Assembly (NCBI GenBank): GCA_041308845.1
Contig: JBFZAT010000059.1
Location: forward strand, 3,378 to 67,377
DNA from: Candidatus Omnitrophota bacterium
Lineage (GTDB): Bacteria; Omnitrophota; Gorgyraeia; Gygaellales; Profunditerraquicolaceae
Reading direction: 5' to 3'
DNA: 64,000 bases
Of the stretch, positions 2,156 through 63,448 are shown piece after piece. The first letter of the stretch is position 1; each line of letters starts with the position of its first letter. Position numbers and translations under genes: made by a program. The notes under the pieces were generated by a model. That model worked only from the letters and a program-made list of their open reading frames with translations. It searched no databases and was not told where the DNA came from.

Positions 2156-2388
2156 TGCTGTTAAACGTTTCAATTTTAAACACTAGCCGGGTAGTTTTTG
2201 AGGGGCAAGCCGGCAGTGTAATTGTAACCGGAGAGGAGGGGGTTTTTGAAATTCTCCCTTTTCATAAGCGTATTATGAGCCGTTTGATTACCGGTTCGGT
2301 TATTGTGGATCAGCAGAGTTTTCCGATCCGCCGGGGGATTATTAAAGCTGATCAAAATACAGTAACTATTATTATGGAAGAAAAATGA
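2155..2388 (+). CDS. atpC: F-type ATPase epsilon subunit, N-terminal beta-sandwich domain only (77 aa)
   Basis: VVFEGQAGSVIVTGEEGVFEILPFHKRIMSRLITGSVIV aligns to the epsilon N-domain ([29 protein letters not shown]...). There is no C-terminal helical hairpin. The stop overlaps the atpE start (ATGA). Confidence 0.7.
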   Translation: MLLNVSILNTSRVVFEGQAGSVIVTGEEGVFEILPFHKRIMSRLITGSVIVDQQSFPIRRGIIKADQNTVTIIMEEK

Positions 2389-2603
2389 GTAAAAATATTG
2401 CTTTAGTCATTATTTTTGCTTTATCTATATTAGGGCCCTGCGCAGTTTTTGCCGCAGGCAGCTTTGCTAGTATTAATGCTTTGGGCCGGAACCCTTCGAG
2501 TGCCCCGAAAATTTTTACGGCTATGATTATCGGGTTAGTTTTTGCGCAGTCTTTGGCTATTGTAGCGATGTTAATTGTATTCCAATTATTCGGAGCCTCT
2601 TAA
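2385..2603 (+). CDS. atpE: F-type ATPase c subunit (proteolipid), atypical because it has no acidic residue
   Basis: It is a 72-aa two-helix hairpin with a GRNP polar loop (canonical ARQP). Helix 2, IIGLVFAQSLAIVAM, aligns to G-ALVEALPIIG, with Gln at the ion-binding Glu/Asp position. Confidence 0.7.
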   Translation: MSKNIALVIIFALSILGPCAVFAAGSFASINALGRNPSSAPKIFTAMIIGLVFAQSLAIVAMLIVFQLFGAS

Positions 2604-2625: not shown

Positions 2626-3336
2626 ATGTTGATGGTTTCATTTATAATTTTTGAAATTATCGTTTTTACCGGTTTGATTTTTATCTTACGTAAAATCATG
2701 ACCCAGAATGTAATTTCGGCGACCCAGCACATCGACGAATTAAACCAGGATTATACTAAGAAAGATGAAGATATCCACCGCCGTTGGGAGGAAGTTAAGC
2801 GGCAAGCTGAGCAAATTATCCGCCAGGCTCAAGAAGAAGCTGAAAAGACCAAATCGGAGTTGATGGCTGCCGGTCAAGCCGAAAAAGATCAGATTTTAAA
2901 ACAGGCCCGCGCTAAAAGCGAAGAGATGGTTGCTCAAGCGGACAAATCTTGTCAAGCGATGCTTGCGGAAATAGAGGCGCGGGTTAGCCGGGAGGCGATG
3001 AATAAAGCAGCAGATTTAATTCATGATGTTTTGCCCGATAAATTTAAGCAGAGCGTGCATAATGAATGGGTAGAAGGGTTGATTGCCCATGGGTTTAGCC
3101 ATTTGAATAATATCAGTATTCCGGATAATGTCTTCGAAGTTTTGATTGTTTCCGCATTTCCACTTACTGCTGCCCAGCGCCAGGAGTTGACGCAAAAGCT
3201 TTCCCGGGTTTTAGAGAGAACAATTACCTTAAAAGAAGAAGTAGAACCTAAGCTTGTTGCCGGACTAATTATTAAGATTGCCAGCCTGGTTTTTGATGGA
3301 ACTTTAAAAAATAAAATTATGGAGAAGGCCCGCTAA
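2626..3336 (+). CDS. atpF: ATP synthase b subunit fused to the delta (OSCP) C-terminal domain
   Basis: It has an N-terminal TM helix and a charged coiled coil typical of b. The C-terminus, LTAAQRQELTQKLSRVLERTITLKEEVEPKLVAGLIIKIASLVFDGTLKNKIMEKAR, matches the delta C-terminus (...[34 protein letters not shown]). Confidence 0.65.
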   Translation: MLMVSFIIFEIIVFTGLIFILRKIMTQNVISATQHIDELNQDYTKKDEDIHRRWEEVKRQAEQIIRQAQEEAEKTKSELMAAGQAEKDQILKQARAKSEEMVAQADKSCQAMLAEIEARVSREAMNKAADLIHDVLPDKFKQSVHNEWVEGLIAHGFSHLNNISIPDNVFEVLIVSAFPLTAAQRQELTQKLSRVLERTITLKEEVEPKLVAGLIIKIASLVFDGTLKNKIMEKAR

Positions 3337-4820
3337 TGTCCAGCGAGATAAAATTCCCGGATCCCGGAACAGTTTTTGAGATTCGCGAGGTAGGTTTTGT
3401 GCAGAGCGTGCGTAAATTCATTGTCGTGGCTAAAGGCATGCCCAGCTGTATTAATGGCCAGATTGTTGAGTTTGCTAACGGTATTCCGGGTTTAGTGATG
3501 GGGTTTACCGAGGAAAAAGTCCAGATTTTAGTTTTAGGGGACCCGGTGGGCATTCGTGCCGGAGATGAAGTTTATAACAAGGGGAAATCTCTTAGTCTTC
3601 CGGTAGGGGAGGCTTTCGTCGGCAGGCTTGTAGATGCGCTTTGCCGTCCCCTGGATGGTTTAGGCCCAATCCAAGCCACTACCCAATTACCAGCATTTAT
3701 TGTTGCTCCCGGAGTTATGGATCGGCAGCCGGTAAATCAAACTCTGGAATCTGGTACTCTGATTATCGATGCGATTATTCCTCTGGCCAAAGGCCAGAGG
3801 CAGCTTTTAATCGGCGACCGAATTACCGGTAAAACCTCGGTAGCCTTGGATGCGATTATTAACCAGAAAGGTAAAGATGTAGTTTGTATTTATTGTTGCA
3901 TCGGTAAGCCATACTCAAGTTTAGTAAAAGTGATCAATGTTTTACGCGAAAAAGAAGCTTTGGATTACGTGATTATTGTCTCTGGCGTAGCCAGTGTTTC
4001 TACCGGAGAACAGTATTTAGCCCCCTATACTGCCTGTACTTTAGGGGAATATTTTATGAGCCAGGGTAAGGATGTATTATTGGTGGCGGATGATTTAACC
4101 AAACATGCCTGGGTGTATCGGCAAATATCTCTTTTACTAGAGCGGGCACCCGGGCGAGAAGCCTACCCGGGAGACATTTTTTATTTACACTCTCAAATGA
4201 TGGAGCGGGCCGGACTGCTTAAAAAAGAGTTAGGCGGAGGCTCAATGACCTTTTTACCGATCGTCGAAATTCTGCAGGGAGACCTTACCGGTTATATTCC
4301 GACCAACTTGATTTCGATGACCGACGGGCAGCTGTATTTCTCTACGGGGCTTTTTAATAAAGGGGTTAAGCCGGCGATTGATTTTGGTTTATCGGTCTCC
4401 CGTATTGGTAATAAAGCGCAGTGGCCGGCGATGAAGGCCTCCAGTAAATCTTTGCGGCTGGACTACCTACAGTATAAGGAACTACTGCAGATGACCCAAC
4501 TGCGCACCGCCGGACTTTCTAAAGAGGCCGAAGAGCGCCTGCGCCGGGGGGAGGCGATCAGCCAATTGATTACTCAGGATAAAAACCGTCCGGTTTCTAT
4601 CGAAGAGCAGATTATTTATTTATATTCCTTAAACCAGGGTTGGTTAGATAATTTATCGACGCAGCAGATTCGGCAATTCCGGTTGGGCATTCTGAATTAT
4701 TTCCAACAGAAAAAGCCTGCATTCTGCCAACAGATCCGCCAGAGCAAAATGCTTAGCGAAGATTTACGTTTGATGTTAGAGGAAACATTAACCGCATACT
4801 TACAGCAAGAGGTAAAGTAG
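3336..4820 (+). CDS. atpA: F-type ATPase alpha subunit
   Basis: It carries the alpha P-loop GDRITGKTS with QRQLLIGD, and the overall alpha architecture. Confidence 0.85.
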   Translation: MSSEIKFPDPGTVFEIREVGFVQSVRKFIVVAKGMPSCINGQIVEFANGIPGLVMGFTEEKVQILVLGDPVGIRAGDEVYNKGKSLSLPVGEAFVGRLVDALCRPLDGLGPIQATTQLPAFIVAPGVMDRQPVNQTLESGTLIIDAIIPLAKGQRQLLIGDRITGKTSVALDAIINQKGKDVVCIYCCIGKPYSSLVKVINVLREKEALDYVIIVSGVASVSTGEQYLAPYTACTLGEYFMSQGKDVLLVADDLTKHAWVYRQISLLLERAPGREAYPGDIFYLHSQMMERAGLLKKELGGGSMTFLPIVEILQGDLTGYIPTNLISMTDGQLYFSTGLFNKGVKPAIDFGLSVSRIGNKAQWPAMKASSKSLRLDYLQYKELLQMTQLRTAGLSKEAEERLRRGEAISQLITQDKNRPVSIEEQIIYLYSLNQGWLDNLSTQQIRQFRLGILNYFQQKKPAFCQQIRQSKMLSEDLRLMLEETLTAYLQQEVK

Positions 4821-4824
4821 ATTT

Positions 4825-5688
4825 ATGCAGACGATGGCGGTAATTAAAAAAGATATGGATTTTAACCGCGGCCTTTCTTCATTGATCGAAGTATTAAAAA
4901 ATATCGCTGTGTCACAATATCGTTCGCTAGAGCATAAATTCACTGTTTTTGATAAACTGATGAACGCCATTGAAAGCTGTTTTGAATTTATTGACCTTTC
5001 AGCTTTCCGGCACCAGTTTTTAACGCCGGCTAATCCGGCGCAATTAATTGTGGTGATTACCAGCGATAGCGGACTTTTGGGCGGTTTAAATATGCAGGTA
5101 GTTACCCGGGCCCTGGCCGGATTAGGGAATACTTCTGGTGGTCAATTGGTAGTCATTGGCGAAAGAGGAAAGATGTATGCCCGGGAAAGCCAGGTACCCT
5201 TTGTGGCCTATCCCGGAATTAGCGACGATAACCGCCTTACCCAGGCTTTGCAACTAAGAGATTATTTATTCTCCGGAATCCTGCAGAAGAAGTTCGGTGC
5301 TTTAAAAGTGGTTTATCCTCATCCGGTGTCTTTTACAGTGCAACGGGTGGAGACGGTGAATTTTCTCCCTTTTTCTATGGATTTCTTATCGAACCAACCT
5401 CAGGCCGCCGGTCAGGCCCGAATTATCAAAGAGGTTATTTTCGAATCTAAGATGGCAGATATTTTTGAATATTTGATTTATCTCTGGATGGGGCAGAAGC
5501 TTTATGACATTTTCGGCTTGAGCCGTTTATCAGAATTTGCCGCCCGCTATGTTCATCTCGAGGATAGTTTGCGCCGGCTTAAAGAGATGGATAGTAAACT
5601 AAAATTACAGTATTTTCGCATCCGGCATGAAATCATTGATCAAAGCATGCGTGAACTTTTTAGCGCCCGGTTATTGTATAATTCTTAA
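4825..5688 (+). CDS. atpG: F-type ATPase gamma subunit (divergent)
   Basis: LIVVITSDSGLLGGLNMQV matches gamma YLVVSTDRGLCGGLNINL, and the C-terminal helix aligns to the gamma C-terminus. Confidence 0.65.
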   Translation: MQTMAVIKKDMDFNRGLSSLIEVLKNIAVSQYRSLEHKFTVFDKLMNAIESCFEFIDLSAFRHQFLTPANPAQLIVVITSDSGLLGGLNMQVVTRALAGLGNTSGGQLVVIGERGKMYARESQVPFVAYPGISDDNRLTQALQLRDYLFSGILQKKFGALKVVYPHPVSFTVQRVETVNFLPFSMDFLSNQPQAAGQARIIKEVIFESKMADIFEYLIYLWMGQKLYDIFGLSRLSEFAARYVHLEDSLRRLKEMDSKLKLQYFRIRHEIIDQSMRELFSARLLYNS

Positions 5689-5719: not shown

Positions 5720-7120
5720 ATGGTTAAGGAAAAAATAAAAGGAAAAATTACTGCCGTGCAGGGGCCGGTGGTGGATGTAAAATTTGCCAGCTCTGATGAG
5801 GTACCGAATATTTATGCGATGCTCTTGACGCATACCATTGATGGTAGTGAGGTTTTTTTAGAGGTTGCTGAGCACCTGCCGGGGAACCTAGCTCGTTGTA
5901 TCTCAATTAACTCTACTACTAATATCCAACGCTATGCGCAGGCAGTTTTCTACGGCCCGTCTATCCAGATACCGGTGGGAGATGGCCTTTATGGACGTTT
6001 AATTAATGTGGTTGGTCAGGCGATTGACCAGGGCGGGGCGATCCCTTACCAGGAAAAAAATTCGATCAGGAAAACCGATATGGGCAGCCGGATGACAATT
6101 AGTAAGAATAAAGATGAGCGGCGTAGTTTTGAGGTAATGGAAACCGGTATTAAGATTATCGATTTACTGGCTCCTTTAGTTAAAGGCAGTAAAACCGGTA
6201 TTTTAGGGGGCGCCGGATTAGGCAAGAGCGTGTTAACCTTGGAAATTATCCAGCATATCGTTAAACGCTATCAGGGTAGTTGCGTTTTTGTCGGTATCGG
6301 GGAGCGTATTCGTGAAGGAAATGAGCTATATTATGAATTAAAGAATCATGATGTGTTATCTAAAACAATGATGGTTTTTGGCCAGATGAATGAGCCTCCC
6401 GGAGCGCGTTTTGCCGTGGCGATGACCGGCATTACCATGGCCGAGGCGGTGCAGAAGAAGAATCAGGATGTGTTGATGTTTTGCGATAATATCTTTCGTT
6501 TTGTGCAAGCCGGAAGTGAAATTTCTACACTCTTAGGCCGGGTGCCTTCAGAAACCGGTTATCAGCCTACCTTACTTTCGGAGGTGAGTGAGTTTCATGA
6601 GCGTATTCGCACAACTAAAGATTCGGGAGGTTCCATTACTTCTATTGAGGCGGTCTATGTGCCGGCTGATGATTTAACTGATCCAGCGGTTGTGGCGATT
6701 TTTAGTTTTCTAGATTCAGTTCTGGTTTTATCCCGCGAGCGTATCCAATTAGGTTTATATCCGGCGATTGATCCGCTTTTATCCAGTTCTTCTAATTTGG
6801 ATATCGATATCGTCGGTAAACGTCATTTCGATGTTGCCCAGGATGTCATCAGAATGTTTCAACGCTATGAAGAGTTACGCCGGATTGTTTTAGTTGTGGG
6901 TATCGATGAACTTTCTTCAAGCGACCGGATTATTTATGAGCGGGCCAGAAAAATGCAGAATTTCCTCACTCAACCGTTTTTTGTCGGAGAAGCTTATACC
7001 GGTAAAAAGGGGGTTTATGTAACCATTGAACAAACTTTGGATGGATGTGAAAGAATTATTTCTGGTAGAATGGATAATCAGCCGGAGGAAGGTTTTTATT
7101 TAATCGGAGCTTTATCATAA
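5720..7120 (+). CDS. atpD: F-type ATPase beta subunit
   Basis: It has the P-loop GGAGLGKSV, the catalytic GERIREG, MNEPPGAR, FRFVQAGSEISTLLGRVPSETGYQPTL and YVPADDLTDPA motifs. The DELSEED loop reads DELSSSD. Confidence 0.85.
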   Translation: MVKEKIKGKITAVQGPVVDVKFASSDEVPNIYAMLLTHTIDGSEVFLEVAEHLPGNLARCISINSTTNIQRYAQAVFYGPSIQIPVGDGLYGRLINVVGQAIDQGGAIPYQEKNSIRKTDMGSRMTISKNKDERRSFEVMETGIKIIDLLAPLVKGSKTGILGGAGLGKSVLTLEIIQHIVKRYQGSCVFVGIGERIREGNELYYELKNHDVLSKTMMVFGQMNEPPGARFAVAMTGITMAEAVQKKNQDVLMFCDNIFRFVQAGSEISTLLGRVPSETGYQPTLLSEVSEFHERIRTTKDSGGSITSIEAVYVPADDLTDPAVVAIFSFLDSVLVLSRERIQLGLYPAIDPLLSSSSNLDIDIVGKRHFDVAQDVIRMFQRYEELRRIVLVVGIDELSSSDRIIYERARKMQNFLTQPFFVGEAYTGKKGVYVTIEQTLDGCERIISGRMDNQPEEGFYLIGALS

Positions 7121-7147: not shown

Positions 7148-9298
7148 ATGTCTAAAAAAATCGATTTGCAGTTAGCCGAAGTATTGGTGGAAAAGAAATT
7201 GATTAACCGGGAGGATATCGGAAAATTTTTACAGGAAGCCGCAACGCTCAGCCATGATTTAAAACAGGTTTTAATCAAGCACAATTTGTTTTCTGAAAAA
7301 GAACTGCTGGATATCTTGGCCGAGAAGCTAAAATTAAGCTGCGTTAACCTTAAGGAGCTGCTGATTGATAAATCGATTATTACTAAAGTTCCTTTGAAGA
7401 TCGCTTCTTATTATAAATTTATTCCTTTGGCGCTGCGCGGCCGGACACTGACGATTGCCGTGGCTTATCCTTTAGACATTCAGACCTTGGATGAAATTAG
7501 GACTCAGCTGGGTCTGGACCTGGAGATGTCTTTGGCCTGCTCGGCGGATGTTTTAGATGATTTAAAGAAATATTACGGTTTGGCCGCCGATACCCTGGAA
7601 AAAATAAGCTCCCAGAGTCCTGCGGGGAACTTTAGCGAACAGACTAAAGTGCAAGAAGGAGTGGAAGATATTGAAAAACAGGCCACGGATGCTTCAGTGA
7701 TTAAATTAGTTAACCAGATAATTCTAGAGGGTTGGCGGAAACGGGCTACCGATATCCATATTGAGCCTTATCGCCAAGGCTTATCTTTACGCTACCGGAT
7801 TGACGGTTTACTTTACGATGCTAATGTGCCAGGGGAAATAAAAAATTTTCTTAATGCCATTGTTTCCCGGATTAAAATCATGTCGAACCTGAATATCGTT
7901 GAACGCCGCCTGCCCCAGGACGGCCGGGCGATTGTTAGGGTCCAAGATCAGGTCTTAGACCTGCGTATTTCCACTATTCCTACTCCTTTTGGAGAAAGCT
8001 TGGTGATCAGAATTCTGCCTACCCAGATGCTCTTTAGCCTGGAGAAACTGGGTTTAGCCAAGAGTGAATTGCAGATCTTTGAAAAATTAGTTCAGAAGCC
8101 GCACGGTATAATATTCGTTACCGGCCCCACTGGCAGCGGTAAGACGACCACCCTTTATTCTTGCCTGACCAGGATTAACACCAAAGACCGTAAAATTATT
8201 ACCATCGAAGACCCGATCGAATATGAGATGAGCGGGATTACGCAGATCCAGGTAATGCCGGAGATCGGGCTGGATTTTGCCCGCGGCCTGCGCAGCATTT
8301 TAAGGCATGATCCGGATGTAATTATGGTGGGAGAAGTAAGGGATTTTGAAACTGCTGAAACAGCCATCCGGGTGGCTTTAACCGGGCATTTAGTATTTTC
8401 TTCTTTACATACTAACGATGCCGCCAGCGGAATCGCCCGCCTGCAGGATATCGGAGTAGAACCTTACTTGATTGCTTCTAGCGTGGAGGCTTTTATTGCT
8501 CAACGTTTGATCCGGGTGATTTGTCCGGAATGCCGTTTTGAAGATAAAAATGCGCCTTTAGAATTAAGGGAGTTGATTGCTAAAGATTTGGGAATTAAAT
8601 TAGAAGAGGTAAAAATATTCCGGGGTAAAGGTTGTGCCCATTGTAACGCTACCGGGTTTTTTGGCCGTACGGCTATCTACGAAATCCTAATCGTCGATGA
8701 TCTAACTAAGGAGATGATTTTAAAGAAAGCTTCTTCGGATCAAATTAAAAGGCTGGCTTTATCCAAAGGCATGCGGACTTTGCGCCAGGACGGTTGGAAA
8801 AAAACGATCAGCGGGATTACTACTTTTGAAGAAGTAATCCGGGTAACTTCGGCTCAACAGGAGGATCTTTTGGTCAAAGAGACTCCGGCTCAAGAGCGCG
8901 GATATACTAAATCGGAGCTGCCGCCGCAGCCGGAAGGATCAAATAAACGTATTTATCAACGTTTAGATAATAAAGTTAAAGTGCGCTATAAAGTTTTTGA
9001 AACCGAAAAAGAATTGATTAAGCGTAAAGAAATCACTGAGGAAATCAGCGCGACAAAAAATATTTCTGCCGGAGGTTTACTTTTTATTGCTCAGGAGCAG
9101 TTAACTATAGGTGCAATATTAGAGCTTAAGATTCAATTACCTAGCAGCCAGGAGTTGGTTGAATGCTTAGCCAGGGTGACTAGGGTGGAGGAAATGCTTG
9201 AGCCGGGAGAATATGATATTGCAGTTTGTTTCCTGGATTTAACCAGCGCTGATAGGATTAGATTAGATAAATTCGTGAAGCTAGAAAGCGGAGGTTAA
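7148..9298 (+). CDS. gspE: Type II secretion / type IV pilus assembly ATPase (GspE/PilB family) with an N-terminal T2SSE_N/MshEN-like domain and a C-terminal PilZ domain
   Basis: Walker A is GPTGSGKTTT. The tetracysteine motif is CPEC...CAHC. The C-terminal ~140 aa carry RIYQR (RxxxR) and NISAGGLLF ((D/N)xSxGG), which are PilZ c-di-GMP-binding signatures. Confidence 0.8.
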   Translation: MSKKIDLQLAEVLVEKKLINREDIGKFLQEAATLSHDLKQVLIKHNLFSEKELLDILAEKLKLSCVNLKELLIDKSIITKVPLKIASYYKFIPLALRGRTLTIAVAYPLDIQTLDEIRTQLGLDLEMSLACSADVLDDLKKYYGLAADTLEKISSQSPAGNFSEQTKVQEGVEDIEKQATDASVIKLVNQIILEGWRKRATDIHIEPYRQGLSLRYRIDGLLYDANVPGEIKNFLNAIVSRIKIMSNLNIVERRLPQDGRAIVRVQDQVLDLRISTIPTPFGESLVIRILPTQMLFSLEKLGLAKSELQIFEKLVQKPHGIIFVTGPTGSGKTTTLYSCLTRINTKDRKIITIEDPIEYEMSGITQIQVMPEIGLDFARGLRSILRHDPDVIMVGEVRDFETAETAIRVALTGHLVFSSLHTNDAASGIARLQDIGVEPYLIASSVEAFIAQRLIRVICPECRFEDKNAPLELRELIAKDLGIKLEEVKIFRGKGCAHCNATGFFGRTAIYEILIVDDLTKEMILKKASSDQIKRLALSKGMRTLRQDGWKKTISGITTFEEVIRVTSAQQEDLLVKETPAQERGYTKSELPPQPEGSNKRIYQRLDNKVKVRYKVFETEKELIKRKEITEEISATKNISAGGLLFIAQEQLTIGAILELKIQLPSSQELVECLARVTRVEEMLEPGEYDIAVCFLDLTSADRIRLDKFVKLESGG

Positions 9299-9303
9299 AG
9301 TTA

Positions 9304-10521
9304 ATGGTAAAGTATAATTATCGGGCCAAGAAAGGGCTCCAGGAGATAGTCAGCGGTACGATAGAAGCTGCTTCGGAAAAAGAGGCCATTGAAAAAATCA
9401 GTGCTTTAGGGTATCTGCCCGTGCACCTGGAAGAGAATAAGGGTCCTGCTCAGGCCTCGATTTTAACCACGCCTAAATCTTACGGCAGGATAGGTTCCGG
9501 TCAGATTACTATTTTTAGCCGGCAGTTGGCCAGCCTTTTAAAATCCGGGGTTCCGATATTATCCGCGATAAATATTATTAAAGAACAATCGGAAAACATG
9601 AATTTAAAAGCGGTGCTGGTTGATATCTATAATGAGATTAAGAATGGAGGTACTTTTTCGTCTTCCCTGGAGGCTCACCCCAAATATTTTTCTGTTTTGT
9701 ACGTAGCGATGGTGCGCACCGGGGAGAATAGCGGAGCTTTAGCTGGTTCGCTTTTAAGGATTGCGGATTACCGGGCTAAACAAGAAGAATTGCTTTCGCG
9801 TTTGCGCATGGCGATGGCTTATCCGCTACTTATGGCTTTAGTCGGAGTGGCTACGGTGGTATTTATGCTTACTTTTGTGATGCCTAGGTTAATGGGGATA
9901 TTTTCTAGTCTGGGCCAGAATCTCCCGCTGCCGACTAAGATTTTATTGGCTATCAGCCAAGGTCTGCGCCAGTGGTGGCCGGGAATAATCTTAAGTCTGG
10001 GGGTAGTGGTTTTTTTGATCAAACAGCAGTTAAAAACTAAAATTGGTAAAATTTCCTGGAGCATTCTAAAATTGCATATACCGATTTTTGGGAAATTCGT
10101 GTTAAAAGCGGATCTGGCTTGTTTTAGCCGGACTTTAGAGCTGTTAATTAAAAGCGGCCTGCCGATACTTAGGGCGCTGCAGATATCCGTTCAGGTATTA
10201 AGCAATGAAGTGATCAAGGAAAAGTTAATTAAAAGCCATCGTGATCTGGAACAGGGGGGATCTTTTGGCCAGAGCATGAAAGATTCTAAATTGCTGCCTT
10301 TGTTTATGGTGAACTTAATCAGCGTCGGCGAAGAATCCGGTAACCTGGCTGCGGCCTTAGGAGAAGTAGCGGATTGCTATGAACGTGATACCGATGAAAC
10401 CGTCAGGATAATGAGCAGCTTACTTGAACCACTAATGATCTTGGTTATGGGTTTAATCGTGGGTTTTATTGTGGTAGCCATGTTATTGCCGATATTTGAA
10501 ATTAACATGATGGCTAAATAA
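9304..10521 (+). CDS. gspF: T2SS/T4P inner-membrane platform protein (GspF/PilC family)
   Basis: It has the duplicated T2SSF-like architecture, 405 aa, three TM segments, and sits immediately downstream of the ATPase. Confidence 0.75.
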   Translation: MVKYNYRAKKGLQEIVSGTIEAASEKEAIEKISALGYLPVHLEENKGPAQASILTTPKSYGRIGSGQITIFSRQLASLLKSGVPILSAINIIKEQSENMNLKAVLVDIYNEIKNGGTFSSSLEAHPKYFSVLYVAMVRTGENSGALAGSLLRIADYRAKQEELLSRLRMAMAYPLLMALVGVATVVFMLTFVMPRLMGIFSSLGQNLPLPTKILLAISQGLRQWWPGIILSLGVVVFLIKQQLKTKIGKISWSILKLHIPIFGKFVLKADLACFSRTLELLIKSGLPILRALQISVQVLSNEVIKEKLIKSHRDLEQGGSFGQSMKDSKLLPLFMVNLISVGEESGNLAAALGEVADCYERDTDETVRIMSSLLEPLMILVMGLIVGFIVVAMLLPIFEINMMAK

Positions 10522-10526
10522 ATCCT

Positions 10527-11387
10527 ATGACGAATATAAGAATGAAGCTATTTTTAGTTATTTTATTGGGTCTATGTTCTTTGGCCGCCGGTTACCCCGG
10601 GAACTGGTCAGAGAAAAAAAGCGAGCATTTTATCGTCTATTTCACCCAGGATGAAAAGTTCGCCCAGGATGTATTGCATAGAGCAGAGCAGGATTACCGC
10701 CGTATCGCTCACGATTTAGGGTATGCGCGGTATTCGGAATTTTGGACCTGGGATAAAAGAGTGAAAATTTACATCTATCCAGAGCGGAATGCTTTCTTAA
10801 AAGCGACCAACCAACCTTCTTGGTCAGAAGGGATGGCTGATTATACCAATAAGCATATCGTCAGCTATGCCTGGGGCAAAGGGTTTGTAGAGTCGCTTCT
10901 ACCGCATGAGATTGCGCATTTAGTTTTCCGCGATTTTGTAGGCTTTAAGGGAGAGATTCCTCTTTGGCTGGATGAAGGTGTAGCGCAGTGGGCCGAAGAA
11001 GCTAAACGTAAGGAGATTAAGAGCCTGATACAGCGATATTTTCAGCAGGATAATTTACTTTTAGTGAGCGATATCATGAAACTGAATATTGAGAATCTTA
11101 AAGGTAAACAGGGGTTATTGATCCGGGCCACCCGGACCAAAGACGATAAAGACGGAGTACTTTTCTTAAGCGCTAACAATTTAATCGAAATTTATTATCT
11201 TCAATCTGTTTCGCTGGTGGGTTATTTAATTGAGAAATTCGGCTCTACCGCTTTTTCCGGGTTTTGCCGTGAACTACGCGATGGGCGCAGCGTAGAGGAA
11301 GCTTTGAGGGTTGCCTATCCTTTACGCATCCGTGATATTAAAGAGTTCGAGGATGGCTGGAGGGAATATTTAAAGACAGGTAATTGA
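10527..11387 (+). CDS. Secreted putative zinc metallopeptidase, MA clan (Peptidase_MA_2-like)
   Basis: It has a signal peptide, HEIAH (HExxH) and a downstream WLDEGVAQW (third-ligand Glu in the WxxEGxAxY/W context). It is embedded between gspF and gspG. Confidence 0.45.
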   Translation: MTNIRMKLFLVILLGLCSLAAGYPGNWSEKKSEHFIVYFTQDEKFAQDVLHRAEQDYRRIAHDLGYARYSEFWTWDKRVKIYIYPERNAFLKATNQPSWSEGMADYTNKHIVSYAWGKGFVESLLPHEIAHLVFRDFVGFKGEIPLWLDEGVAQWAEEAKRKEIKSLIQRYFQQDNLLLVSDIMKLNIENLKGKQGLLIRATRTKDDKDGVLFLSANNLIEIYYLQSVSLVGYLIEKFGSTAFSGFCRELRDGRSVEEALRVAYPLRIRDIKEFEDGWREYLKTGN

Positions 11388-11402: not shown

Positions 11403-11834
11403 ATGATCATGAATAAAGCGCAAAAAGGTAGAGTTCAATCAAATGGTTTTACGCTGATCGAATTAATGTTGGTAGTGGTAATTATCGGGGCATTGGTAGC
11501 GATGGTCATGCCTAGGCTTACCGGTAGAGGAGAACAGGCCCGGGTGGCAGCAGCTAGCGCGGATATTAATGCTAATATTGCTACTGCTTTAAAACTTTAC
11601 GAATTGGATAATGGCAATTTTCCCAGTTCCTCTGAAGGGTTAAAGGCTTTATTAGTTAAACCTTCATCAGTGAAGAATTGGAATGGGCCTTATTTAGAAA
11701 GAAAACCGGTTGATCCTTGGGGCCGGGAATATGAATATAAATCTCCGGGTGAGCATCGCAAAGCCGATTATGATTTATACTCTTTAGGTAAGGATGGGGT
11801 AGAGAGTGTTGATGATGTTACAAACTGGGAATAA
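11403..11834 (+). CDS. gspG: T2SS major pseudopilin GspG
   Basis: It has the prepilin leader SNG|FTLIELMLVVVIIG and the GspG C-terminal signature NWNGPY...DPWGREYEYKSPG...DYDLYSLGKDG. Confidence 0.85.
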   Translation: MIMNKAQKGRVQSNGFTLIELMLVVVIIGALVAMVMPRLTGRGEQARVAAASADINANIATALKLYELDNGNFPSSSEGLKALLVKPSSVKNWNGPYLERKPVDPWGREYEYKSPGEHRKADYDLYSLGKDGVESVDDVTNWE

Positions 11835-12228
11835 GGCAAGCATAAAGAGTCCTGTTAGAGGCTTTAGTCTGCTGGAGGTGATGATTGCCGCAGCGGTGCT
11901 GGCTTTGGGGGCGACATTAATTTATCAGTCTTTTTTTACCGCGGTTGATTCTTTTAATTATTATTCCGCTCTTTTAAAAATAACCCCTTGGATGGATGAG
12001 CAGATTTGGCAAGCCCAGAATGAGCTTAGCCGTCCGGGTTCAGGAGCTAATCTGCCCTCCGGCGGTCGGCTGGAAATTAATAATAAGGTTGTGGATTGGA
12101 GTTTAACTTACCATGCTCTAGATCAATCTATGAACCTTTACCAGATTGACTTGGCTCTTTTCTGGCCGCAAGGGGCCAGGCAAGTCAAATTATCGAGATC
12201 CGCTTATGCGATTCATACGCAAGAATAA
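11806..12228 (+). CDS. Minor pseudopilin (GspH/GspI-like)
   Basis: It has the prepilin-type N-terminus RG|FSLLEVMIAAAVLALG and is of small size. Confidence 0.55.
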   Translation: MLMMLQTGNKASIKSPVRGFSLLEVMIAAAVLALGATLIYQSFFTAVDSFNYYSALLKITPWMDEQIWQAQNELSRPGSGANLPSGGRLEINNKVVDWSLTYHALDQSMNLYQIDLALFWPQGARQVKLSRSAYAIHTQE

Positions 12229-12790
12229 TTCAGGTTTTAGTCTGGTTGAGCTTCTGGTAGTCATGGTTATGCTCAGCGTAATTTCTTTAGCTATCTATTC
12301 AACCTTTAATAATGGTTTTAAAATATGGCAAAAGGTTAATCAGCCTTTAGAGCAGCAAGATTTGGGTATTTTCTTTGATAAGTTGGCTCAAGATTTAAGC
12401 AACTGCTTGCATTCTGCCAATATCCCTTTTTCCGGTAGCCTGAATACCCTGACTATACCGACCTTAGTTTTTAGCCCGCGCTTAAAGATAAAAAGTTTAG
12501 GTTCGGTAGATTATTTTTACGATCCGCAAGCCGGATTTGTGTATCGTCAAACTAAGGATTTCAGCCAGCTTTATAACCGGCAACAAGAGAGTCCGGTGCT
12601 CCTATTAAAGGAGATTAGATTTTTTAGATTTGAATATTATTACTTTGACGCAGAGAAACAAACTTATTTGTGGCAAGAAGAATGGTTAAGCACGGGTTTA
12701 CCTCTGGCGGTTAGGGTAGTGCTAGGTTTTAATGATTCCGATGAGAATAACCAATTTATCCGGACAATCAGTGTTCCGATCGGCGCTTAA
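12206..12790 (+). CDS. Minor pseudopilin (GspJ-like)
   Basis: It has the prepilin-type N-terminus NSG|FSLVELLVVMVMLS, reached from the internal ATG at 12206. The listed ORF start at 12146 is probably too far upstream. Confidence 0.55.
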   Translation: MRFIRKNNSGFSLVELLVVMVMLSVISLAIYSTFNNGFKIWQKVNQPLEQQDLGIFFDKLAQDLSNCLHSANIPFSGSLNTLTIPTLVFSPRLKIKSLGSVDYFYDPQAGFVYRQTKDFSQLYNRQQESPVLLLKEIRFFRFEYYYFDAEKQTYLWQEEWLSTGLPLAVRVVLGFNDSDENNQFIRTISVPIGA

Positions 12791-13784
12791 GTCCAAAGGA
12801 AGTATTTTAATTCTGGCTTTATGGTCGCTTTGTTTATTATCGGCGTTTGCCGTTATTTTAAATTATCAAATTCGCCAAGCGCTGGTTTTAGCCAGCCGGA
12901 TTGATCAGAAAGATAAAATGCGCTGGATTGCCGCTGCCGGGGTAGCTAAGGTTATGGCGGAATTAAAGCATAGCCCAGCGCAGACCTACGATTATTTAGC
13001 TGACCCCTGGAGTAATAATCCTGCCGCTTTCCGGGATATTCCGGTAGGAGACGGCGAATTTACCCTAGAATATTTTTATCCAGATACCTACTCTGCTGTT
13101 GCCCAAGCAGGTTACGGTTGTGTGGATGAAGAACGTAAGCTTAATATTAATCAGGTTGAGCCGGAAGTTTTAACCCGTTTTTTCCGGGTAGTTTTATCGG
13201 TTGATGAATCGCTGGCTCAAGAATTAGCCGCTTGCATTGTGGATTGGAGGGATGCAGATAGCCAGCTTTCTATTCCTACCGGGAGTGCGGAATATTTTTA
13301 TTATAGCAGCCTGCCTTTTTCTTATCCGGCTAAAAATGCCGATTTTGAGGTTCTAGAGGAGTTGTTGCTGGTTAAAGGTTTTAGCGAGAATGTTTTTGAA
13401 AAAATAAAAGACTATGTTACTATTTATGGATCCGGCCGGGTGAATATTAATACCACTACGCAGGTTATCTTATTTGCCCTGGGGTTAGATGAAGATTTGG
13501 CGGCCAAGATTATTTTATACCGCATGGGTCCGGACGGATTGGGCCAGACACCGGATGATAACGTTTTTGTTTCTCAATCGGAGATTGTGCCCAAGTTAAG
13601 TCAATTTTATGCTTTCAGTTCTGCACAGATTGATCAGTTGAATCGGATAGTTTCTCAGTATATCGCGGTTGGCTCCAATAACTTTTTGATTAAGTCTACG
13701 GCTAAATTGTCCGGAAAGAATACTTTAACTGTATTTAGTGTAGTTAATCGAGATGGCAAAGTTCTTTACTGGCGGGAAAATTGA
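12732..13784 (+). CDS. gspK: T2SS minor pseudopilin GspK-like
   Basis: It has a hydrophobic N-terminal segment, 350 aa, a GRVNINTTT (xNxNTA-like) motif and a helix-hairpin-helix-like region typical of GspK. Confidence 0.55.
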   Translation: MIPMRITNLSGQSVFRSALKSKGSILILALWSLCLLSAFAVILNYQIRQALVLASRIDQKDKMRWIAAAGVAKVMAELKHSPAQTYDYLADPWSNNPAAFRDIPVGDGEFTLEYFYPDTYSAVAQAGYGCVDEERKLNINQVEPEVLTRFFRVVLSVDESLAQELAACIVDWRDADSQLSIPTGSAEYFYYSSLPFSYPAKNADFEVLEELLLVKGFSENVFEKIKDYVTIYGSGRVNINTTTQVILFALGLDEDLAAKIILYRMGPDGLGQTPDDNVFVSQSEIVPKLSQFYAFSSAQIDQLNRIVSQYIAVGSNNFLIKSTAKLSGKNTLTVFSVVNRDGKVLYWREN

Positions 13785-13787
13785 TAA

Positions 13788-15269
13788 ATGTTTAAAATTA
13801 AAATGAAAAAGTTTAAATTTTTTTCCAGGCTTGCCCACCAGGAAATGGTCGGGGTTAATCTCAGCGGGAATAATTTAAAAATCTCTCATCTAAAGATTTC
13901 TCCGAACAAGAAAGAGGTAGTTAATCTTTTGAATTTAGATATTACCGCGCTTAACGATATTGAGATCGCTAAAAAAATCCAGGTAGCTATCGGGGCTCTC
14001 CGGGGTAAAGCGGTGGAGATTATTGATTTGCTTCCTACGCATTTGGTAATTACCAAAAATATCGAAGTTCCTTCTATCGAAAAAAAAGAGATTAAGGAGA
14101 TTCTCAACCTGCAGGCCGGCCGGCATACTCCTTATTCCCGAGAAGAAATAATCGTAGATTATGTTGAAATCGGTACCTATAAAAATAGCTATACTAAGGT
14201 ACTTTTAGTGATTGTGGCTCGCAGCGTTGTTAAGCGGCATTATGAAATATTGGAACGGGCAGGTTTTAGGCTTAAGCAGGCTCTTCTGGCTTCGGAAGGA
14301 ATGGCTTTGGCTGTTTTTAAAACTTTAAGGCTGGAGAATGAAAGCGCGCCGGTCAACATTCTGCATGTTGATGAAAACTTTACGGATTTTAGCGTCGTTT
14401 TTAAAAACCGGGTTATTTTTATCCGTTCTATCCCGATCGGGGCCTCTCAGCTCAAACAAGAAAAAGAAGTTTACCAGCTGAAGTTTATCGACGAGCTTAA
14501 AAGATCGTTGGAGGCTTATTTAGGCGGAGATATTGAAATCAGCCCGAATATGCTTATTTTAACCGGAGCCGAGGACGGCCTGAAAGAAATTGAAACTTTG
14601 CTTAACAGCACAATGCATTTACCGATTAAAACCTTGTCGTATTCCGGTATGTTTAATATTTCAGAGCTAGCCCGCGGAGCAATGTTTAAATCCCGGCAAA
14701 TATCTTTTTTTGATGTAATTGCTCCGCTTTTAAACTGTCCGGAGCTCAAGATTGATCTGGTGCCGGAGGAAGCCCGGGTGCGCCGCTCACTTGAGGAAAG
14801 AGGCAAAGATTTGATTAAAACCGGTATTTTTATCTTAAGTATTTTTATTATTGTTTTCTTTATTCTAGCCAGTAAAATCTATTTCCATGGTGTTCAGCTA
14901 AACAGGTTAGAACGTAAATATTCTACGGTTAACCGGGAAGCCAAAGAGCTAGAGAAAGACCTGGTTAAAATAGGGTTGGTGAAGAATTATCTGACTAATC
15001 GGGGCTATTCTTTAGAAATTTTGACTCAGTTACACGGTTTAGTTTCTGCTGATATTGAGTTGAGCGAAATTCGCTATGACCTAGATAAATTCTCCATTAA
15101 AGGTTCGGCGGATGCCATGAGTTCGGTTTTTTCATTTGTCGACCGGCTGGAAAAGTCCGAATATTTCAAGGAGGTTAAAACCCGCTATACCACTAAGCGC
15201 AAAGACGGTTTGAGGGATTTAACGGATTTCGAAATTATTACTTTGACCGAAAGGCCTAAGGATCGATGA
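13788..15269 (+). CDS. GspL-like protein: a PilM-type actin-like cytoplasmic domain, a TM helix, and a PilN-like periplasmic domain
   Basis: The N-terminal ~350 aa resemble PilM. A single TM helix follows (IFILSIFIIVFFILA), then a ~120-aa periplasmic segment. Confidence 0.6.
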   Translation: MFKIKMKKFKFFSRLAHQEMVGVNLSGNNLKISHLKISPNKKEVVNLLNLDITALNDIEIAKKIQVAIGALRGKAVEIIDLLPTHLVITKNIEVPSIEKKEIKEILNLQAGRHTPYSREEIIVDYVEIGTYKNSYTKVLLVIVARSVVKRHYEILERAGFRLKQALLASEGMALAVFKTLRLENESAPVNILHVDENFTDFSVVFKNRVIFIRSIPIGASQLKQEKEVYQLKFIDELKRSLEAYLGGDIEISPNMLILTGAEDGLKEIETLLNSTMHLPIKTLSYSGMFNISELARGAMFKSRQISFFDVIAPLLNCPELKIDLVPEEARVRRSLEERGKDLIKTGIFILSIFIIVFFILASKIYFHGVQLNRLERKYSTVNREAKELEKDLVKIGLVKNYLTNRGYSLEILTQLHGLVSADIELSEIRYDLDKFSIKGSADAMSSVFSFVDRLEKSEYFKEVKTRYTTKRKDGLRDLTDFEIITLTERPKDR

Positions 15270-15832
15270 AGCTGCCTAATTTACAGTTTTTACAGGTATT
15301 TGTAGGGAAGTTATCTAAAAAAGACCGTTTGATTTTTTACCTTACGGTTTTTATGGTTTCATTATTGATTTTAGACCGGGCAATTGTTTCTCCCGTTTTT
15401 TCTAAAATCAAATCCTTAAATAATCAGGTCCGCGATAAGCAGGCCGAGATTAAAAAAAATTTACGGCTGCTAGCGCAGAAAGACAGAATTATTACCGGAA
15501 GTGTTAAATACAGCTCTTTTTTAGGTGATGCCCGGCTGAGCGATGACCAGCAGGTCACTTTAGTACTGAAAGAATTGGAAAGTCTAGCTAGCAAGAGTTC
15601 GGTATATTTAGTAGATATGAAACCGGCGGGGGTCAAAACATCGGGTTCTTCAAAAATAATCATGATCAATCTGAATTGTGAAGCCCAAATGGAGCAGTTG
15701 GTGAATTTTATGTATAATCTAGAGAATTCCAATAGTTTGATTTCGATAGAGAAATATCAACTGGTTCCTAAAACCAGAGAATCCAGCGTAGCTAAATGCA
15801 GCATATCTGTGTATAAGATCGTAGCGCTATAA
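15266..15832 (+). CDS. GspM/PilO-like bitopic membrane protein
   Basis: It has an N-proximal TM helix, is 188 aa, and its position after the GspL-like gene matches canonical T2SS order. Confidence 0.45.
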   Translation: MKLPNLQFLQVFVGKLSKKDRLIFYLTVFMVSLLILDRAIVSPVFSKIKSLNNQVRDKQAEIKKNLRLLAQKDRIITGSVKYSSFLGDARLSDDQQVTLVLKELESLASKSSVYLVDMKPAGVKTSGSSKIIMINLNCEAQMEQLVNFMYNLENSNSLISIEKYQLVPKTRESSVAKCSISVYKIVAL

Positions 15833-15880: not shown

Positions 15881-16354
15881 ATGAAAAGGATATTTTTATT
15901 GGCGTTGAGTTTAGTCCTCTTGTGGAGTTTTACCGCGCAGGCCTTAGAAACTACATTGATCGACGTGCGTAACGAAATACTAAAGAATGCCCAGGGGATA
16001 AAACCTTACTTTGAGAAATCTCGGGACCCGCTTTTATTAAATAGTTTGTGGGGTTCTTCGATTATGGCGGTTTCACAATTAGACGCTTATTTTTCGATGT
16101 TGGGGATCATAAACGGCATTAAAAATGAAGATTTACAAACAGCCCAGATTGGTTATTTGGTCAGTTGGCTGAACCAAATTAAAGATACAACGGAATTAAA
16201 TATTAAAAGTTTAGAGGCGATTAAATCGACTAGTGATGCCCGTAGCCGGGCGATGGCTTTAAAGTTAAGGGACATTTTTAATAATTTAAAAACCCGGGTA
16301 GTTAAAGAGCTGGGGACGGTTACGCAGCTGCAGCAGTCGCAGGCTAAGAACTAA
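15881..16354 (+). CDS. Small secreted/periplasmic helical protein of unknown function, last gene of the T2SS-like cluster
   Basis: It has a signal peptide (LALSLVLLWSFTAQA), no recognisable motifs, and is followed by a terminator. Confidence 0.4.
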   Translation: MKRIFLLALSLVLLWSFTAQALETTLIDVRNEILKNAQGIKPYFEKSRDPLLLNSLWGSSIMAVSQLDAYFSMLGIINGIKNEDLQTAQIGYLVSWLNQIKDTTELNIKSLEAIKSTSDARSRAMALKLRDIFNNLKTRVVKELGTVTQLQQSQAKN

Positions 16355-24807: not shown

Positions 24808-26037
24808 TTGTTACCACATCTTTTTCGCTGGCCGGTTACGGTTTTGATGATAAAAGACATAATTCTGAGGTGTGAAATTAAACGTTATCTAGGGGCTCTA
24901 ATATTTTTGTTTTTACTATTACCCGGGCAACTGCCAGCTGTTCAGCAGGAGGCTTTGGATAAATTGGTTATTTTTTATTCACCCGGCTGTCATTATTGTA
25001 TCCAAATCAAGCAGAAAATTATGCCGGAGATTGAGCAGGAATTTAAGGGTAAAATTAATTTTGAATATCGGGATATTAGTCAGCTTGAAGATTATAAGCT
25101 GCTGTTGGGATTGTTACCGGACAACTCGAAATTCGAAATACCTCTTTTTTATTTTAAAGGCGAGTTTATTACTCCTGGGAAGGTGCAGGCCCGGTTAGAG
25201 CTGCGCAGTTTTATTTATTCCGGCATAAATAATAAGTTCGCTGGCCAGGGTTTCCGGCCGGTAGATTTGGTGTCGCATTTTAAGAATTTTATTCCGGCGG
25301 CGATTATTTTTGCTGGGTTAAGTGACGGAGTTAATCCTTGCGCTTTTACGGTGATAGTTTTTTTTATCTCTTTTTTAGCTTTGCAGGGGTATCGTAAAAG
25401 AGAGCTTATTTTAATCGGATTAGGTTTTATTCTTGCGGTTTTTTTGACTTATTTAGGGTTAGGTTTAGGAGTTTTTAATTTCTTTTATCGTTTCTCGGGT
25501 TTCTGGGCGGTAGCGCGTTTATTTAATCTGACGTTGGGAGTTTTAAGTATTGTGTTTGGCGTTCTGGCGGTTTATGATTTTATAAAATTTAAACAAACTG
25601 CTTCTACTGAAGGATTAATTTTACAGCTCCCCAAACCGGTTAAGGAGCGCATCCATCAGGTGGTCGGATTTTTTTACCGCAGAAGCCTTCAGGAAAAAAA
25701 GGAAAAATTTAAACCGGCACTCGGCAAACTTTTAGCGAGTGCTTTGCTTACTGGTTTCTTAGTTTCACTCTTAGAAGCAGTTTGTACCGGACAAGTGTAT
25801 TTACCGACGCTGTCTTTTATCCTTAAATCTACCGAATTTAAATTGGCTGCGCTGGGCTATCTTTTATTATATAATTTTATGTTTATTGTGCCTTTAATCG
25901 TGATTTTTGTCTTAGCGCTTTTAGGCACTAGCAGCCAGCAGTTTTCCGGTTTTTTAAAGAAATACCTGGGATTAATTAAGATAATGATGGCAATTTTATT
26001 TTTTAGCTTGGGAGTTTATCTGCTTTGGAGGGGTTAA
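24808..26037 (+). CDS. Thioredoxin-like domain (CHYC) fused to a DsbD/CcdA-like thiol-disulfide membrane domain
   Basis: The N-terminal domain has a CxxC motif (SPGCHYC). The membrane domain has conserved Cys in two TM helices (GVNPCAF, EAVCTGQ). Confidence 0.4.
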   Translation: MLPHLFRWPVTVLMIKDIILRCEIKRYLGALIFLFLLLPGQLPAVQQEALDKLVIFYSPGCHYCIQIKQKIMPEIEQEFKGKINFEYRDISQLEDYKLLLGLLPDNSKFEIPLFYFKGEFITPGKVQARLELRSFIYSGINNKFAGQGFRPVDLVSHFKNFIPAAIIFAGLSDGVNPCAFTVIVFFISFLALQGYRKRELILIGLGFILAVFLTYLGLGLGVFNFFYRFSGFWAVARLFNLTLGVLSIVFGVLAVYDFIKFKQTASTEGLILQLPKPVKERIHQVVGFFYRRSLQEKKEKFKPALGKLLASALLTGFLVSLLEAVCTGQVYLPTLSFILKSTEFKLAALGYLLLYNFMFIVPLIVIFVLALLGTSSQQFSGFLKKYLGLIKIMMAILFFSLGVYLLWRG

Positions 26038-32311: not shown

Positions 32312-33364
32312 ATGCAGATTAATGATTTGATCAACCATACTAGTGAGTGGCTCAAAGGGACCGGCCCGCATTCGGACGTAGTTATTTCCAGCCGGATCCG
32401 GCTGGCCAGGAATCTTAATAAATTTCCTTTTCCGCATTGGGCTTCTAAGGCACAGTTAAATAACGTTCTGGAGCTGACTCACCAGGCGCTGGAGAAGATA
32501 GAGCTACTGAAGCATTCCACGCTTTTTGTTCTGGCAGACTTAGATAGTATTGATAAGCAGTTTTTAGTAGAGCGGCACTTGATGTCTATCGAACATACCC
32601 AGAAAACAGAGCAGAAGGCGGTATCGGTTAATGATGAAGAAAATATCGCCGTGATGATTAACGAGGAGGACCATTTACGCATTCAATTGATGCAGTCGGG
32701 GTTTAATCTTTTTGAAGCCTGGGAGATTATTAACGGTATCGACGATGCTTTAGCCAAGCTTCTGGATTATGCTTATCTGGCTGATTTTGGCTATCTTACT
32801 GCTTGCCCGACGAATACCGGCACCGGTATGCGCGGGTCGGTTATGCTGCATTTACCGGCGCTGGTAATGAGCCGGCAGATCGAACGAGTTTTGGCGGCTA
32901 TTGCCAAGCTAAGTTTTACTACCCGTGGACTCTACGGAGAGGGTACCCAGGCCAGCGGTAATTTTTTCCAGATTTCTAATCAAGTCTCATTGGGGCATAG
33001 CGAAACCGAAATTATCGAGAACATTAATGGTTTAATTCGCCAGATTATTGAACAGGAAACTCAGGCTCGGGAAATTATGTTGACCAAAAGCAAGGAAATT
33101 CTGGAAGACAGGATTAACCGTTCTTTGGGTATTTTAAAAAGCGCCCGGATTATTACTAGCCAGGAAACAATTGAATTATTGTCTATGGTTAGGCTGGGCA
33201 GTGATTTAGGGATGATCAAAGGTATTGACCGGTTGACGATCAATGAGCTTTTTATTATTACTCAACCGGCGCATTTACAGAAACTGGAGAAGGTTAAGCT
33301 TTCATCAGATCAGCGGGATCTTAAAAGGGCAGAGTTAATTCGTAAGAAACTTAACTTTTTATAA
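32312..33364 (+). CDS. mcsB: Protein arginine kinase McsB (ATP:guanido phosphotransferase)
   Basis: It carries the CPTNTGTGMRGS active-site motif. Confidence 0.8.
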   Translation: MQINDLINHTSEWLKGTGPHSDVVISSRIRLARNLNKFPFPHWASKAQLNNVLELTHQALEKIELLKHSTLFVLADLDSIDKQFLVERHLMSIEHTQKTEQKAVSVNDEENIAVMINEEDHLRIQLMQSGFNLFEAWEIINGIDDALAKLLDYAYLADFGYLTACPTNTGTGMRGSVMLHLPALVMSRQIERVLAAIAKLSFTTRGLYGEGTQASGNFFQISNQVSLGHSETEIIENINGLIRQIIEQETQAREIMLTKSKEILEDRINRSLGILKSARIITSQETIELLSMVRLGSDLGMIKGIDRLTINELFIITQPAHLQKLEKVKLSSDQRDLKRAELIRKKLNFL

Positions 33365-33379
33365 TTATGAGGAGAGATT

Positions 33380-63041: not shown

Positions 63042-63448
63042 GGGGGTGAAAGGGTTCGACTTAAGCTATGTCGGATAAGAGCAGCATGCCGCGGAGGTAA
63101 GGTTAGCCGCGTTAACAACCCTTACACAATTTAAACGCAAACACGCAAGTGTCACGTTTAGGAACATTTGTCCAGCCGTCTTTGGCGGCCAGACCGATGT
63201 TCGTACCAGCCTTCGGACTTAATTAAGCCCGAAGCCCCTAACTGTCCTGCCTACGGGATAGATTAGGGCCCAAGTAGGATAGTTCCGGCGGTTAGCCTTC
63301 CAAACCGGGGCGAAATTCTAAAAGGCTGCGCTTTACAAATCCTGCCGGGTAGGAGTTGTAAAGGCTAAGATAAATTACCAGGCTAAGCATGTAGCGGCTT
63401 TTATTTGATTACTTAAGGACCCCGGTTCAATTCCGGGCACCTCCACCA
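63042..63448 (+). ncRNA. ssrA: tmRNA (ssrA)
   Basis: The 5' end GGGGGTGAAAGGGTTCGAC pairs with the 3' end CACCTCCACCA. The 3' T-arm reads GGACCCCGGTTCAATTCCGGG. It lies immediately downstream of smpB and is ~407 nt long. Confidence 0.7.

Follow-up and report, generated by a model that had tools for sequence, protein, structure and literature searches.

A conserved rotor-ring subunit without its ion-binding acid in an F-type-derived ATPase operon of Omnitrophota

The 64,000-nucleotide (nt) stretch analyzed here (the window; contig JBFZAT010000059.1 of assembly GCA_041308845.1, Candidatus Omnitrophota bacterium) contains an F-type ATPase operon whose c gene, at 2385-2603 on the plus strand, encodes a rotor-ring proteolipid of 72 amino acids (aa) with zero acidic residues. 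Few functional residues in bioenergetics are as conserved as the helix-2 carboxylate of subunit c. In the window protein, its column is occupied by Gln55, encoded by the CAG codon at 2547-2549 (plus strand). The gene encodes a real, strongly conserved F-type rotor-ring subunit minus the ion-binding acid. With a probability of roughly 70%, it is the ring subunit of an a-less, nonchemiosmotic, F-type-derived ATPase conserved across Omnitrophota, in which ATP is most likely burned for mechanical work instead of being synthesized.

The c protein matched PF00137 (ATP-synt_C) at 26.6 bits, above the gathering score of 24 (E = 7.2e-6), and its count of Asp plus Glu is 0. This agrees with an earlier annotation made from the letters alone (the sequence-only reading), which had described a 72-aa F-type c proteolipid without Asp or Glu, a GRNP loop, and a Gln (CAG) at the carboxylate position. 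The column assignment was confirmed by a phmmer alignment to all Protein Data Bank (PDB) chains. Q55 pairs with the Glu that binds the ion in Chloroflexus aurantiacus c (9itj, 'FTEALAI'), with E59 of the yeast and Yarrowia c subunits, and with a Gln in hairpin 2 of Acetobacterium woodii c1 (4bem_J). AlphaFold2 (AF2), run with 62 homologues, gave a helical hairpin (helices 2-35 and 40-70; pLDDT 90.8), and the top Foldseek matches of this model were all F-type c subunits. The polar R-x-P loop, GRNP, is invariant across homologues. The NCBIfam equivalog cut-offs were not reached; the best scores were 20.8 against 122 for NF005521 and 15.2 against 43.95 for TIGR01260.

Compared with canonical AtpE (PF00137), the window protein shares the two-helix hairpin of about 72 aa, the R-N-P loop, and an operon with b, delta, alpha, gamma, beta, and epsilon. 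Unlike canonical AtpE, it has no carboxylate in helix 2, where a functional AtpE has Glu or Asp; its helix 1 reads GPCAVFAAG rather than GxGxGxG, and it has no partner subunit a.

The sequence-only reading had raised two further explanations, a sequencing error and a decayed operon. Over 4838 nt, CAG included, a second, independent record (GCA_041308905.1, L001) shows 100% identity to the window, and the Gln codon differs by species, being CAA in some and CAG in others; because of this identity and the use of both codons across species, a sequencing error was rejected. Homologues of c form 406 clusters, nearly all from Omnitrophota, and relatives are encoded by 331 GTDB species-representative genomes. 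The ratio of nonsynonymous to synonymous substitution rates (dN/dS) between the window gene and its Q-type relatives is 0.025-0.044, with synonymous sites saturated (dS > 1.3). Decay was rejected because of this strong purifying selection (dN/dS about 0.03) and the conservation in the 331 species genomes. Every gene of the window is intact. The closest species-level relative, the STB_134 metagenome-assembled genome (MAG), has a c protein 97% identical to that of the window and an alpha gene split into two open reading frames (ORFs; L002/L011:6839-8323). One has 183 aa and the other about 290-306 aa, according to which start is called. The split stems from a frameshift or misassembly, or else the gene was recently inactivated.

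In the family as a whole, the carboxylate column tolerates many residues, whereas the other positions barely change. Of 121 sequences (the top 120 homologue clusters plus the window sequence), 62 have Glu at position 55 and 59 have Gln, and the Q-type proteins of these clusters contain no acidic residue at all. Among 90 locus-encoded c genes from about 80 species, the column holds Gln in 48, Glu in 37, Ala in 2, and Phe, Ser, Val, and Gly once each. The remainder is near-invariant (N4, P18, G34-R35-N36-P37, P41, K42, F44, F66, and Q67). Outside the family, canonical c subunits had Glu without exception in a profile search of 1.84 billion representatives, and the non-Glu residues clustered in the closest relatives, which have the loop type GRNPSxAPK. 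On a midpoint-rooted neighbor-joining (NJ) tree of concatenated alpha and beta from 62 loci, about 13 state changes were counted at column 55, with the deepest clades all carrying Glu. To judge by this tree, the acid has been lost many times independently in the family. Throughout the phylum, the rotor ring, central stalk, stator, and catalytic head are retained under strong selection while this residue drifts and subunit a has been dropped, a natural experiment that separates the mechanical from the ion-carrying role of the c-ring.

Some other arrangements of c were seen in these searches. In one PVC-group (Planctomycetota-Verrucomicrobiota-Chlamydiota) MAG, the operon holds two tandem c genes (L049:988-1498), both with Gln at column 55. 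The second is far more divergent, with the loop GRNPDRAPK and five acidic residues elsewhere, and the pair suggests a possible mixed ring. The more distant non-Glu representatives P0145 and P0129 lie on contigs of <1 kb, where only the order epsilon-then-c is visible. Multihairpin chains were also found: P0132 (1139 aa, Promethearchaeota/Hodarchaeota MAGs) has 15 c-subunit hairpins in one chain, P0144 (968 aa) about 11, P0160 (631 aa) 8, P0149 (447 aa) 6, and P0154 (306 aa, a Bacillota MAG) 4, with Glu kept in every hairpin of all five. P0132 looks like a whole rotor ring in a single Asgard chain, reminiscent of the Methanopyrus proteolipid with its 13 hairpins.

No subunit a was found to accompany the ring. 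A phmmer search with Escherichia coli AtpB gave no match among all ORFs of 90 loci or in the six-frame translation of the 64-kb window; this query was a single distant sequence of low sensitivity, for which a transmembrane (TM) count scan compensated. In that scan, related operons contained no unassigned multi-TM ORF, and the 10-kb flanks of 80 loci likewise held no polytopic ORF resembling subunit a. A scan of the loci for the R-x-x-G-N motif was also negative, and a subunit a hidden in or near the operon was rejected on the three scans together. A PF00119 subunit a adjoining c, as expected of a canonical operon, is absent from the window and from the 80 loci (±10 kb), and there is no second atp operon within the window.

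The same gene order was found in all 80 genome loci and 6 metagenome loci: giant surface protein, epsilon, c, b/delta fusion, alpha, gamma, beta, and a cluster resembling a type II secretion system (T2SS) or type IV pilus (T4P). Stop and start codons overlap at the giant/epsilon, epsilon/c (by ATGA), and b-delta/alpha junctions. From the giant-protein tail to GspM, the window genes lie on the plus strand. Alpha (3336-4820) conserves Walker A and the Arg finger (SVSRIG), and beta (5720-7120) conserves Walker A (GGAGLGKS), the catalytic GERIREG, and Walker B. Across 62 loci, conservation reaches 100% for the three beta motifs (Walker A, GERxREG, and Walker B) and for the Arg finger of alpha. Alpha passes the canonical atpA cut-off (572.7 versus 554) and beta that of atpD (560.3 versus 462.85), while gamma, epsilon, b, and c all fall far under the NCBIfam equivalog cut-offs. 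The divergent gamma (4825-5688), for example, scores 80 bits against the TIGR01146 cut-off of 194.

The remaining stalk subunits are shortened. Epsilon (2155-2388, 77 aa) matches PF02823 only; it consists of the N-terminal beta-sandwich and lacks the C-terminal inhibitory helical domain. The b/delta fusion (2626-3336, 236 aa) has an N-terminal TM helix, a b-like coiled coil, and a delta/OSCP C-terminal part, whose OSCP match covers only profile positions 100-166 of 172 (the C-terminal third). The fusion resembles the b subunit of N-ATPases (TIGR03321), with a score below the model cut-off. The full-length epsilon and full delta of a canonical F1Fo operon are therefore not present. Position 10 of the fusion's TM helix (2626-2700) is polar; the window has Glu there and many relatives have Gln ('LQV', 'FQI'), independently of the E/Q state of c. 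As a candidate, a charged partner in this helix that tracks E versus Q was rejected on the alignment.

Variants of the locus were observed as well. Insertions between operon genes (L027:12555-12878, L086:3281-3544, L085:278-3002, and L051:72-657) resemble GIY-YIG nuclease, toxin-antitoxin, and nucleotidyltransferase genes, as judged by sequence only. The MAG STD1_64 carries two complete giant-protein/ATPase/pilus loci, L018 (JAQURC010000010.1) and L020 (JAQURC010000009.1), both Q-type. The locus can therefore be duplicated in one genome, unless the STD1_64 bin is mixed.

From the missing acid, the sequence-only reading had concluded that the ring could not translocate ions canonically and belonged either to a noncanonical or repurposed rotary complex or to a decayed operon. 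The former conclusion is strengthened by the absent subunit a, the variable column, the intact F1 residues, and the fixed synteny, and the latter has been discarded. What that reading had overlooked was the lack of subunit a, the epsilon without its C-terminal domain, the half-delta, and the giant-protein tail with its anchor.

We propose the following mechanism. Without subunit a, there would be no half-channels and no Arg to deprotonate the ring site. A Glu on the ring would then keep its proton in the lipid environment and act like Gln, and the acid would be dispensable and therefore replaced repeatedly. This would explain why Glu, Gln, Ala, Ser, and Val are interchangeable while the parts for ring assembly and torque are conserved, including the c-loop contacting gamma and epsilon, which is invariant across the family. 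An energetic equivalence of Gln and a Glu that is always protonated has been argued for a different c-ring site (PMC3692424). The enzyme would run in the direction of ATP hydrolysis only, which fits an epsilon minus its inhibitory C-terminal domain. Gamma, epsilon, and the c-ring would turn against the b/delta stator, with the ring serving as a purely mechanical rotor or as a membrane anchor. More speculatively, the work may be delivered to an upstream type I anchor module, which is free-standing or forms the C terminus of the giant protein. The adjacent T2SS/T4P-like apparatus may act jointly with it, and the purpose may be attachment, motility, or predation on host cells.

If so, the 'symbiotic ATPase' becomes a concrete, testable model, in which an ATP-driven, nonpumping rotary motor insensitive to dicyclohexylcarbodiimide (DCCD) is predicted and is genetically tied to a membrane anchor, giant surface proteins, and a pseudopilus system. 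For annotators, a KEGG or Pfam label of 'F-type ATPase' in ultra-small, host-dependent bacteria would not equal chemiosmotic ATP synthesis.

Several points weigh against the a-less, nonchemiosmotic reading. Glu is kept in about 40% of family members and in every deepest clade, and the carboxylate may still matter in the Glu-keeping lineages. The trees are NJ only and crude. The delta N-terminal domain is missing from the b/delta fusion, and alpha appears to be without its N-terminal delta-binding helix (the atpA profile match starts at position 25), which leaves the hold of the stator on F1 in doubt; rotation is assumed. In the family alignment, no residue of the b TM helix covaries with the E or Q of c. 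The tie between the anchor module and the ATPase consists of gene order, overlapping stop/start codons, and conservation only. Finally, the searches covered the loci ±10 kb and the window, and a gene for subunit a at a distant genomic site could have been missed.

As reported by Seymour et al. in 2023 (PMC10066038), a 'non-respiratory' or 'symbiotic' F-type ATPase of Omnitrophota lies next to type IVa pilus (T4aP) clusters. These authors suggested that it serves attachment to host cells or motility on them, and they placed the Omnitrophota alpha near Mycoplasma types 2/3; subunit c, subunit a, the c-ring, and protons are unmentioned in their main text. The system described here is the same one, since it comes from the same phylum and has divergent F-type alpha and beta beside a T4P-like cluster, which lies within 10 kb of alpha/beta. 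The system is thus known in outline. To this we add the ion-blind ring with its variable carboxylate, the lack of subunit a, the shortening of epsilon and delta, and the conserved anchor module (or giant gene) directly upstream. A 2026 preprint that surveyed 176 complete genomes of Omnitrophota found alpha/beta in 125/176 and gamma in only 30/176 at strict thresholds; it described an 'incomplete F1F0 chemiosmotic apparatus' and common V/A-type ATPases. West-Roberts et al. described T2SS-like loci next to giant genes. No description of an a-less or carboxylate-less Omnitrophota ATPase was found in the searchable literature.

Other relatives of the F-type enzyme share single traits with this operon. 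The second hairpin of A. woodii c1 (4bem) has Gln at exactly this column. In the A. woodii ring, the Gln hairpin of 4bem is reportedly the single silent site in a mixed ring whose other hairpins have a Na+-binding Glu, and the enzyme is said to possess subunit a and to be chemiosmotic. Unlike in A. woodii, the sole c gene of the window operon is without the acid, so every ring site would be silent.

The gliding motor of Mycoplasma mobile works with the giant surface (leg) proteins Gli349 and Gli521, and the Mycoplasma complexes are not known to have a c-ring or b/delta. The Omnitrophota operon, in contrast, keeps both. As in the type 2/3 F1-like ATPases of Mycoplasma, including the M. mobile gliding motor (PMC11864180, PMC8406192), alpha, beta, and gamma would serve here as an ATP-burning motor. 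The cut-offs for the Mycoplasma types (MMOB1660/1670 and MSC_0619/0618) were not reached, with scores of 409/600, 425.5/850, 284.8/520, and 411.6/570. By hidden Markov model (HMM) score, the window alpha and beta are closer to canonical atpA and atpD than to the Mycoplasma models.

With N-ATPases (atpDCQRBEFAG), the operon shares the lack of a separate delta and a b subunit with a delta-like C terminus (TIGR03321, 8e-13). The N-ATPase gene order, epsilon...c-b-alpha-gamma, is also that of the window. N-ATPases differ from the window operon in having subunit a, AtpQ/AtpR, and an ion-binding c. No extra small membrane genes are present in the operon, and the N-ATPase scores stayed below cut-off (TIGR03321, 48.7/224.7; TIGR03324, 508.4/750.5; TIGR03305, 493.6/752; TIGR03323, 35.9/282).

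The gene upstream of epsilon gives the motor a candidate load. The ORF at 2-2155 is open at the left window edge and supplies the last 717 aa, the C-terminal part, of a giant surface protein. The stop codon of this ORF shares bases with the start codon of epsilon. Homologues range from 2240 to >7753 aa and are built of repeated immunoglobulin-like (Ig-like) units. The last 270 aa (1343-2152) form a conserved anchor module without a Pfam family. In the AF2 model (pLDDT 85.6), it comprises a beta-sandwich, a three-helix bundle, a long TM helix, and a short cytoplasmic tail. From this layout follows a predicted type I topology, in which most of the module lies outside the cell and the tail in the cytoplasm. 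The single TM helix, WIIIFVIIIFTGLLAGVLFFSW, spans 1976-2041. Its residues T211, W212, F221, F231, and W233, as well as Q236 just past the helix and the A-F motif of the cytoplasmic tail (A251-F252), are invariant or nearly so. In about one-third of the loci, the module is a separate gene of 265-310 aa with its own signal peptide. The E/Q state of c showed no association with a fused or separate module when the lists were compared by eye. Homologues of the module form 82 clusters, almost all unnamed or hypothetical, and the few named ones come mainly from Omnitrophota.

Such conservation is unusual for a simple anchor and argues for specific contacts in the membrane and the cytoplasm, for which the ATPase would be the obvious candidate partner. 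The motor is probably coupled mechanically to the anchor or giant protein, as far as gene neighborhood and conservation indicate. The c-ring lumen of V-ATPases holds the single-pass helices of Ac45 and PRR, and in the GldLM/PorLM gliding motor rotation is passed to surface adhesins. The anchor module shares their topology, a type I single pass with a large extracytoplasmic domain. It is possible, though rather doubtful, that the ion-blind c-ring carries or pushes the single-pass anchor helix of the giant extracellular protein, in the manner of Ac45/PRR in the V-ATPase ring or of GldM turning within GldL, and is an ATP-driven mechanical rotor of a new class of rotary machine. If true, cytoplasmic ATP would power the spinning, cranking, or reeling of an adhesin with thousands of residues as the cell attaches to its prey, and this would be the first F-type rotor with extracellular mechanical work as its output.

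The setting of the operon, flanked by a huge secreted protein and a T2SS-like system, also recalls an export ATPase like the FliI-FliH-FliJ complex of flagella and type III secretion systems (T3SS). In that case, the c-ring and the b/delta fusion would tether an F1-like head to the membrane, and this head would energize the export or unfolding of the giant protein or pseudopilins without productive rotation of the ring. Alpha and beta are homologous to FliI/SctN (176-194 bits), and the b/delta fusion resembles the FliH architecture. However, the best scores against the FliI/SctN family models, 165-194 bits, are below the cut-offs of 379-619. The c-loop that binds gamma and epsilon and the full gamma/epsilon rotor are retained, which points to torque transmission. 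In addition, the separate anchor genes have ordinary signal peptides, suggesting Sec export; the cluster has its own GspE ATPase; and no export-gate homologue of the FlhA/SctV type turned up in the cluster, in the related loci or the window. An export ATPase is therefore unlikely.

An ordinary reversible ATP synthase would require subunit a to be encoded elsewhere in the genome and the Gln rings to be inactive, regulatory, or equipped with another ion ligand. Split atp operons do exist in some bacteria; alpha and beta score above the canonical cut-offs, and Glu persists in the roughly 40% of members mentioned above. Against this stand the Q-type c proteins without any acidic residue, a column that also accepts Ala, Ser, Val, Gly, and Phe, the lack of an a-like ORF in the 80 loci or the window, and epsilon, gamma, b, and c scores under the equivalog cut-offs. 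The operon is moreover in strict synteny with giant-protein and pilus genes, not with atpI/atpB, and published surveys term the ATPase nonrespiratory or incomplete. We consider such a synthase very improbable. A decaying operon or pseudogene, or a CAG codon produced by sequencing or assembly error, has a negligible probability and is already refuted by the sequence comparisons, since the split alpha of STB_134 is outweighed by the low dN/dS, the spread of homologues over clusters and species, the two Gln codons, the identical second record, and the intact window genes.

The a-less ATPase operon is followed directly by the T2SS/T4P-like cluster. A GspE/PilB-type ATPase gene (7148-9298) starts 28 nt past the end of beta (7120). 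Its product has an N-terminal MshEN and a C-terminal PilZ domain, that is, two modules binding cyclic di-GMP (c-di-GMP) in one protein. In many related loci, one or two extra stand-alone MshEN genes lie between beta and this ATPase. The cluster continues with a GspF/PilC platform protein (9304-10521), a Peptidase_MA_2 protein conserved in the cluster (10527-11387), and, at 11403-15832, GspG, two N_methyl pseudopilins (one GspJ-like), GspK, a PilM/PilN (GspL-like) fusion, and GspM. A 157-aa gene without a Pfam family (15881-16354) closes it.

Elsewhere in the window, a 409-aa gene without a Pfam family lies among housekeeping genes (24808-26037). At 32312-35800, a McsB-type protein arginine kinase (ATP:guanido phosphotransferase) is encoded directly upstream of ClpC, a pairing best known from Firmicutes. 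A transfer-messenger RNA (tmRNA) gene is located at 63042-63448 (Rfam, 170 bits); the tag peptide predicted by ARAGORN is unusually long (29 aa) and ends in ...PAFGLN, not in the usual ...LAA.

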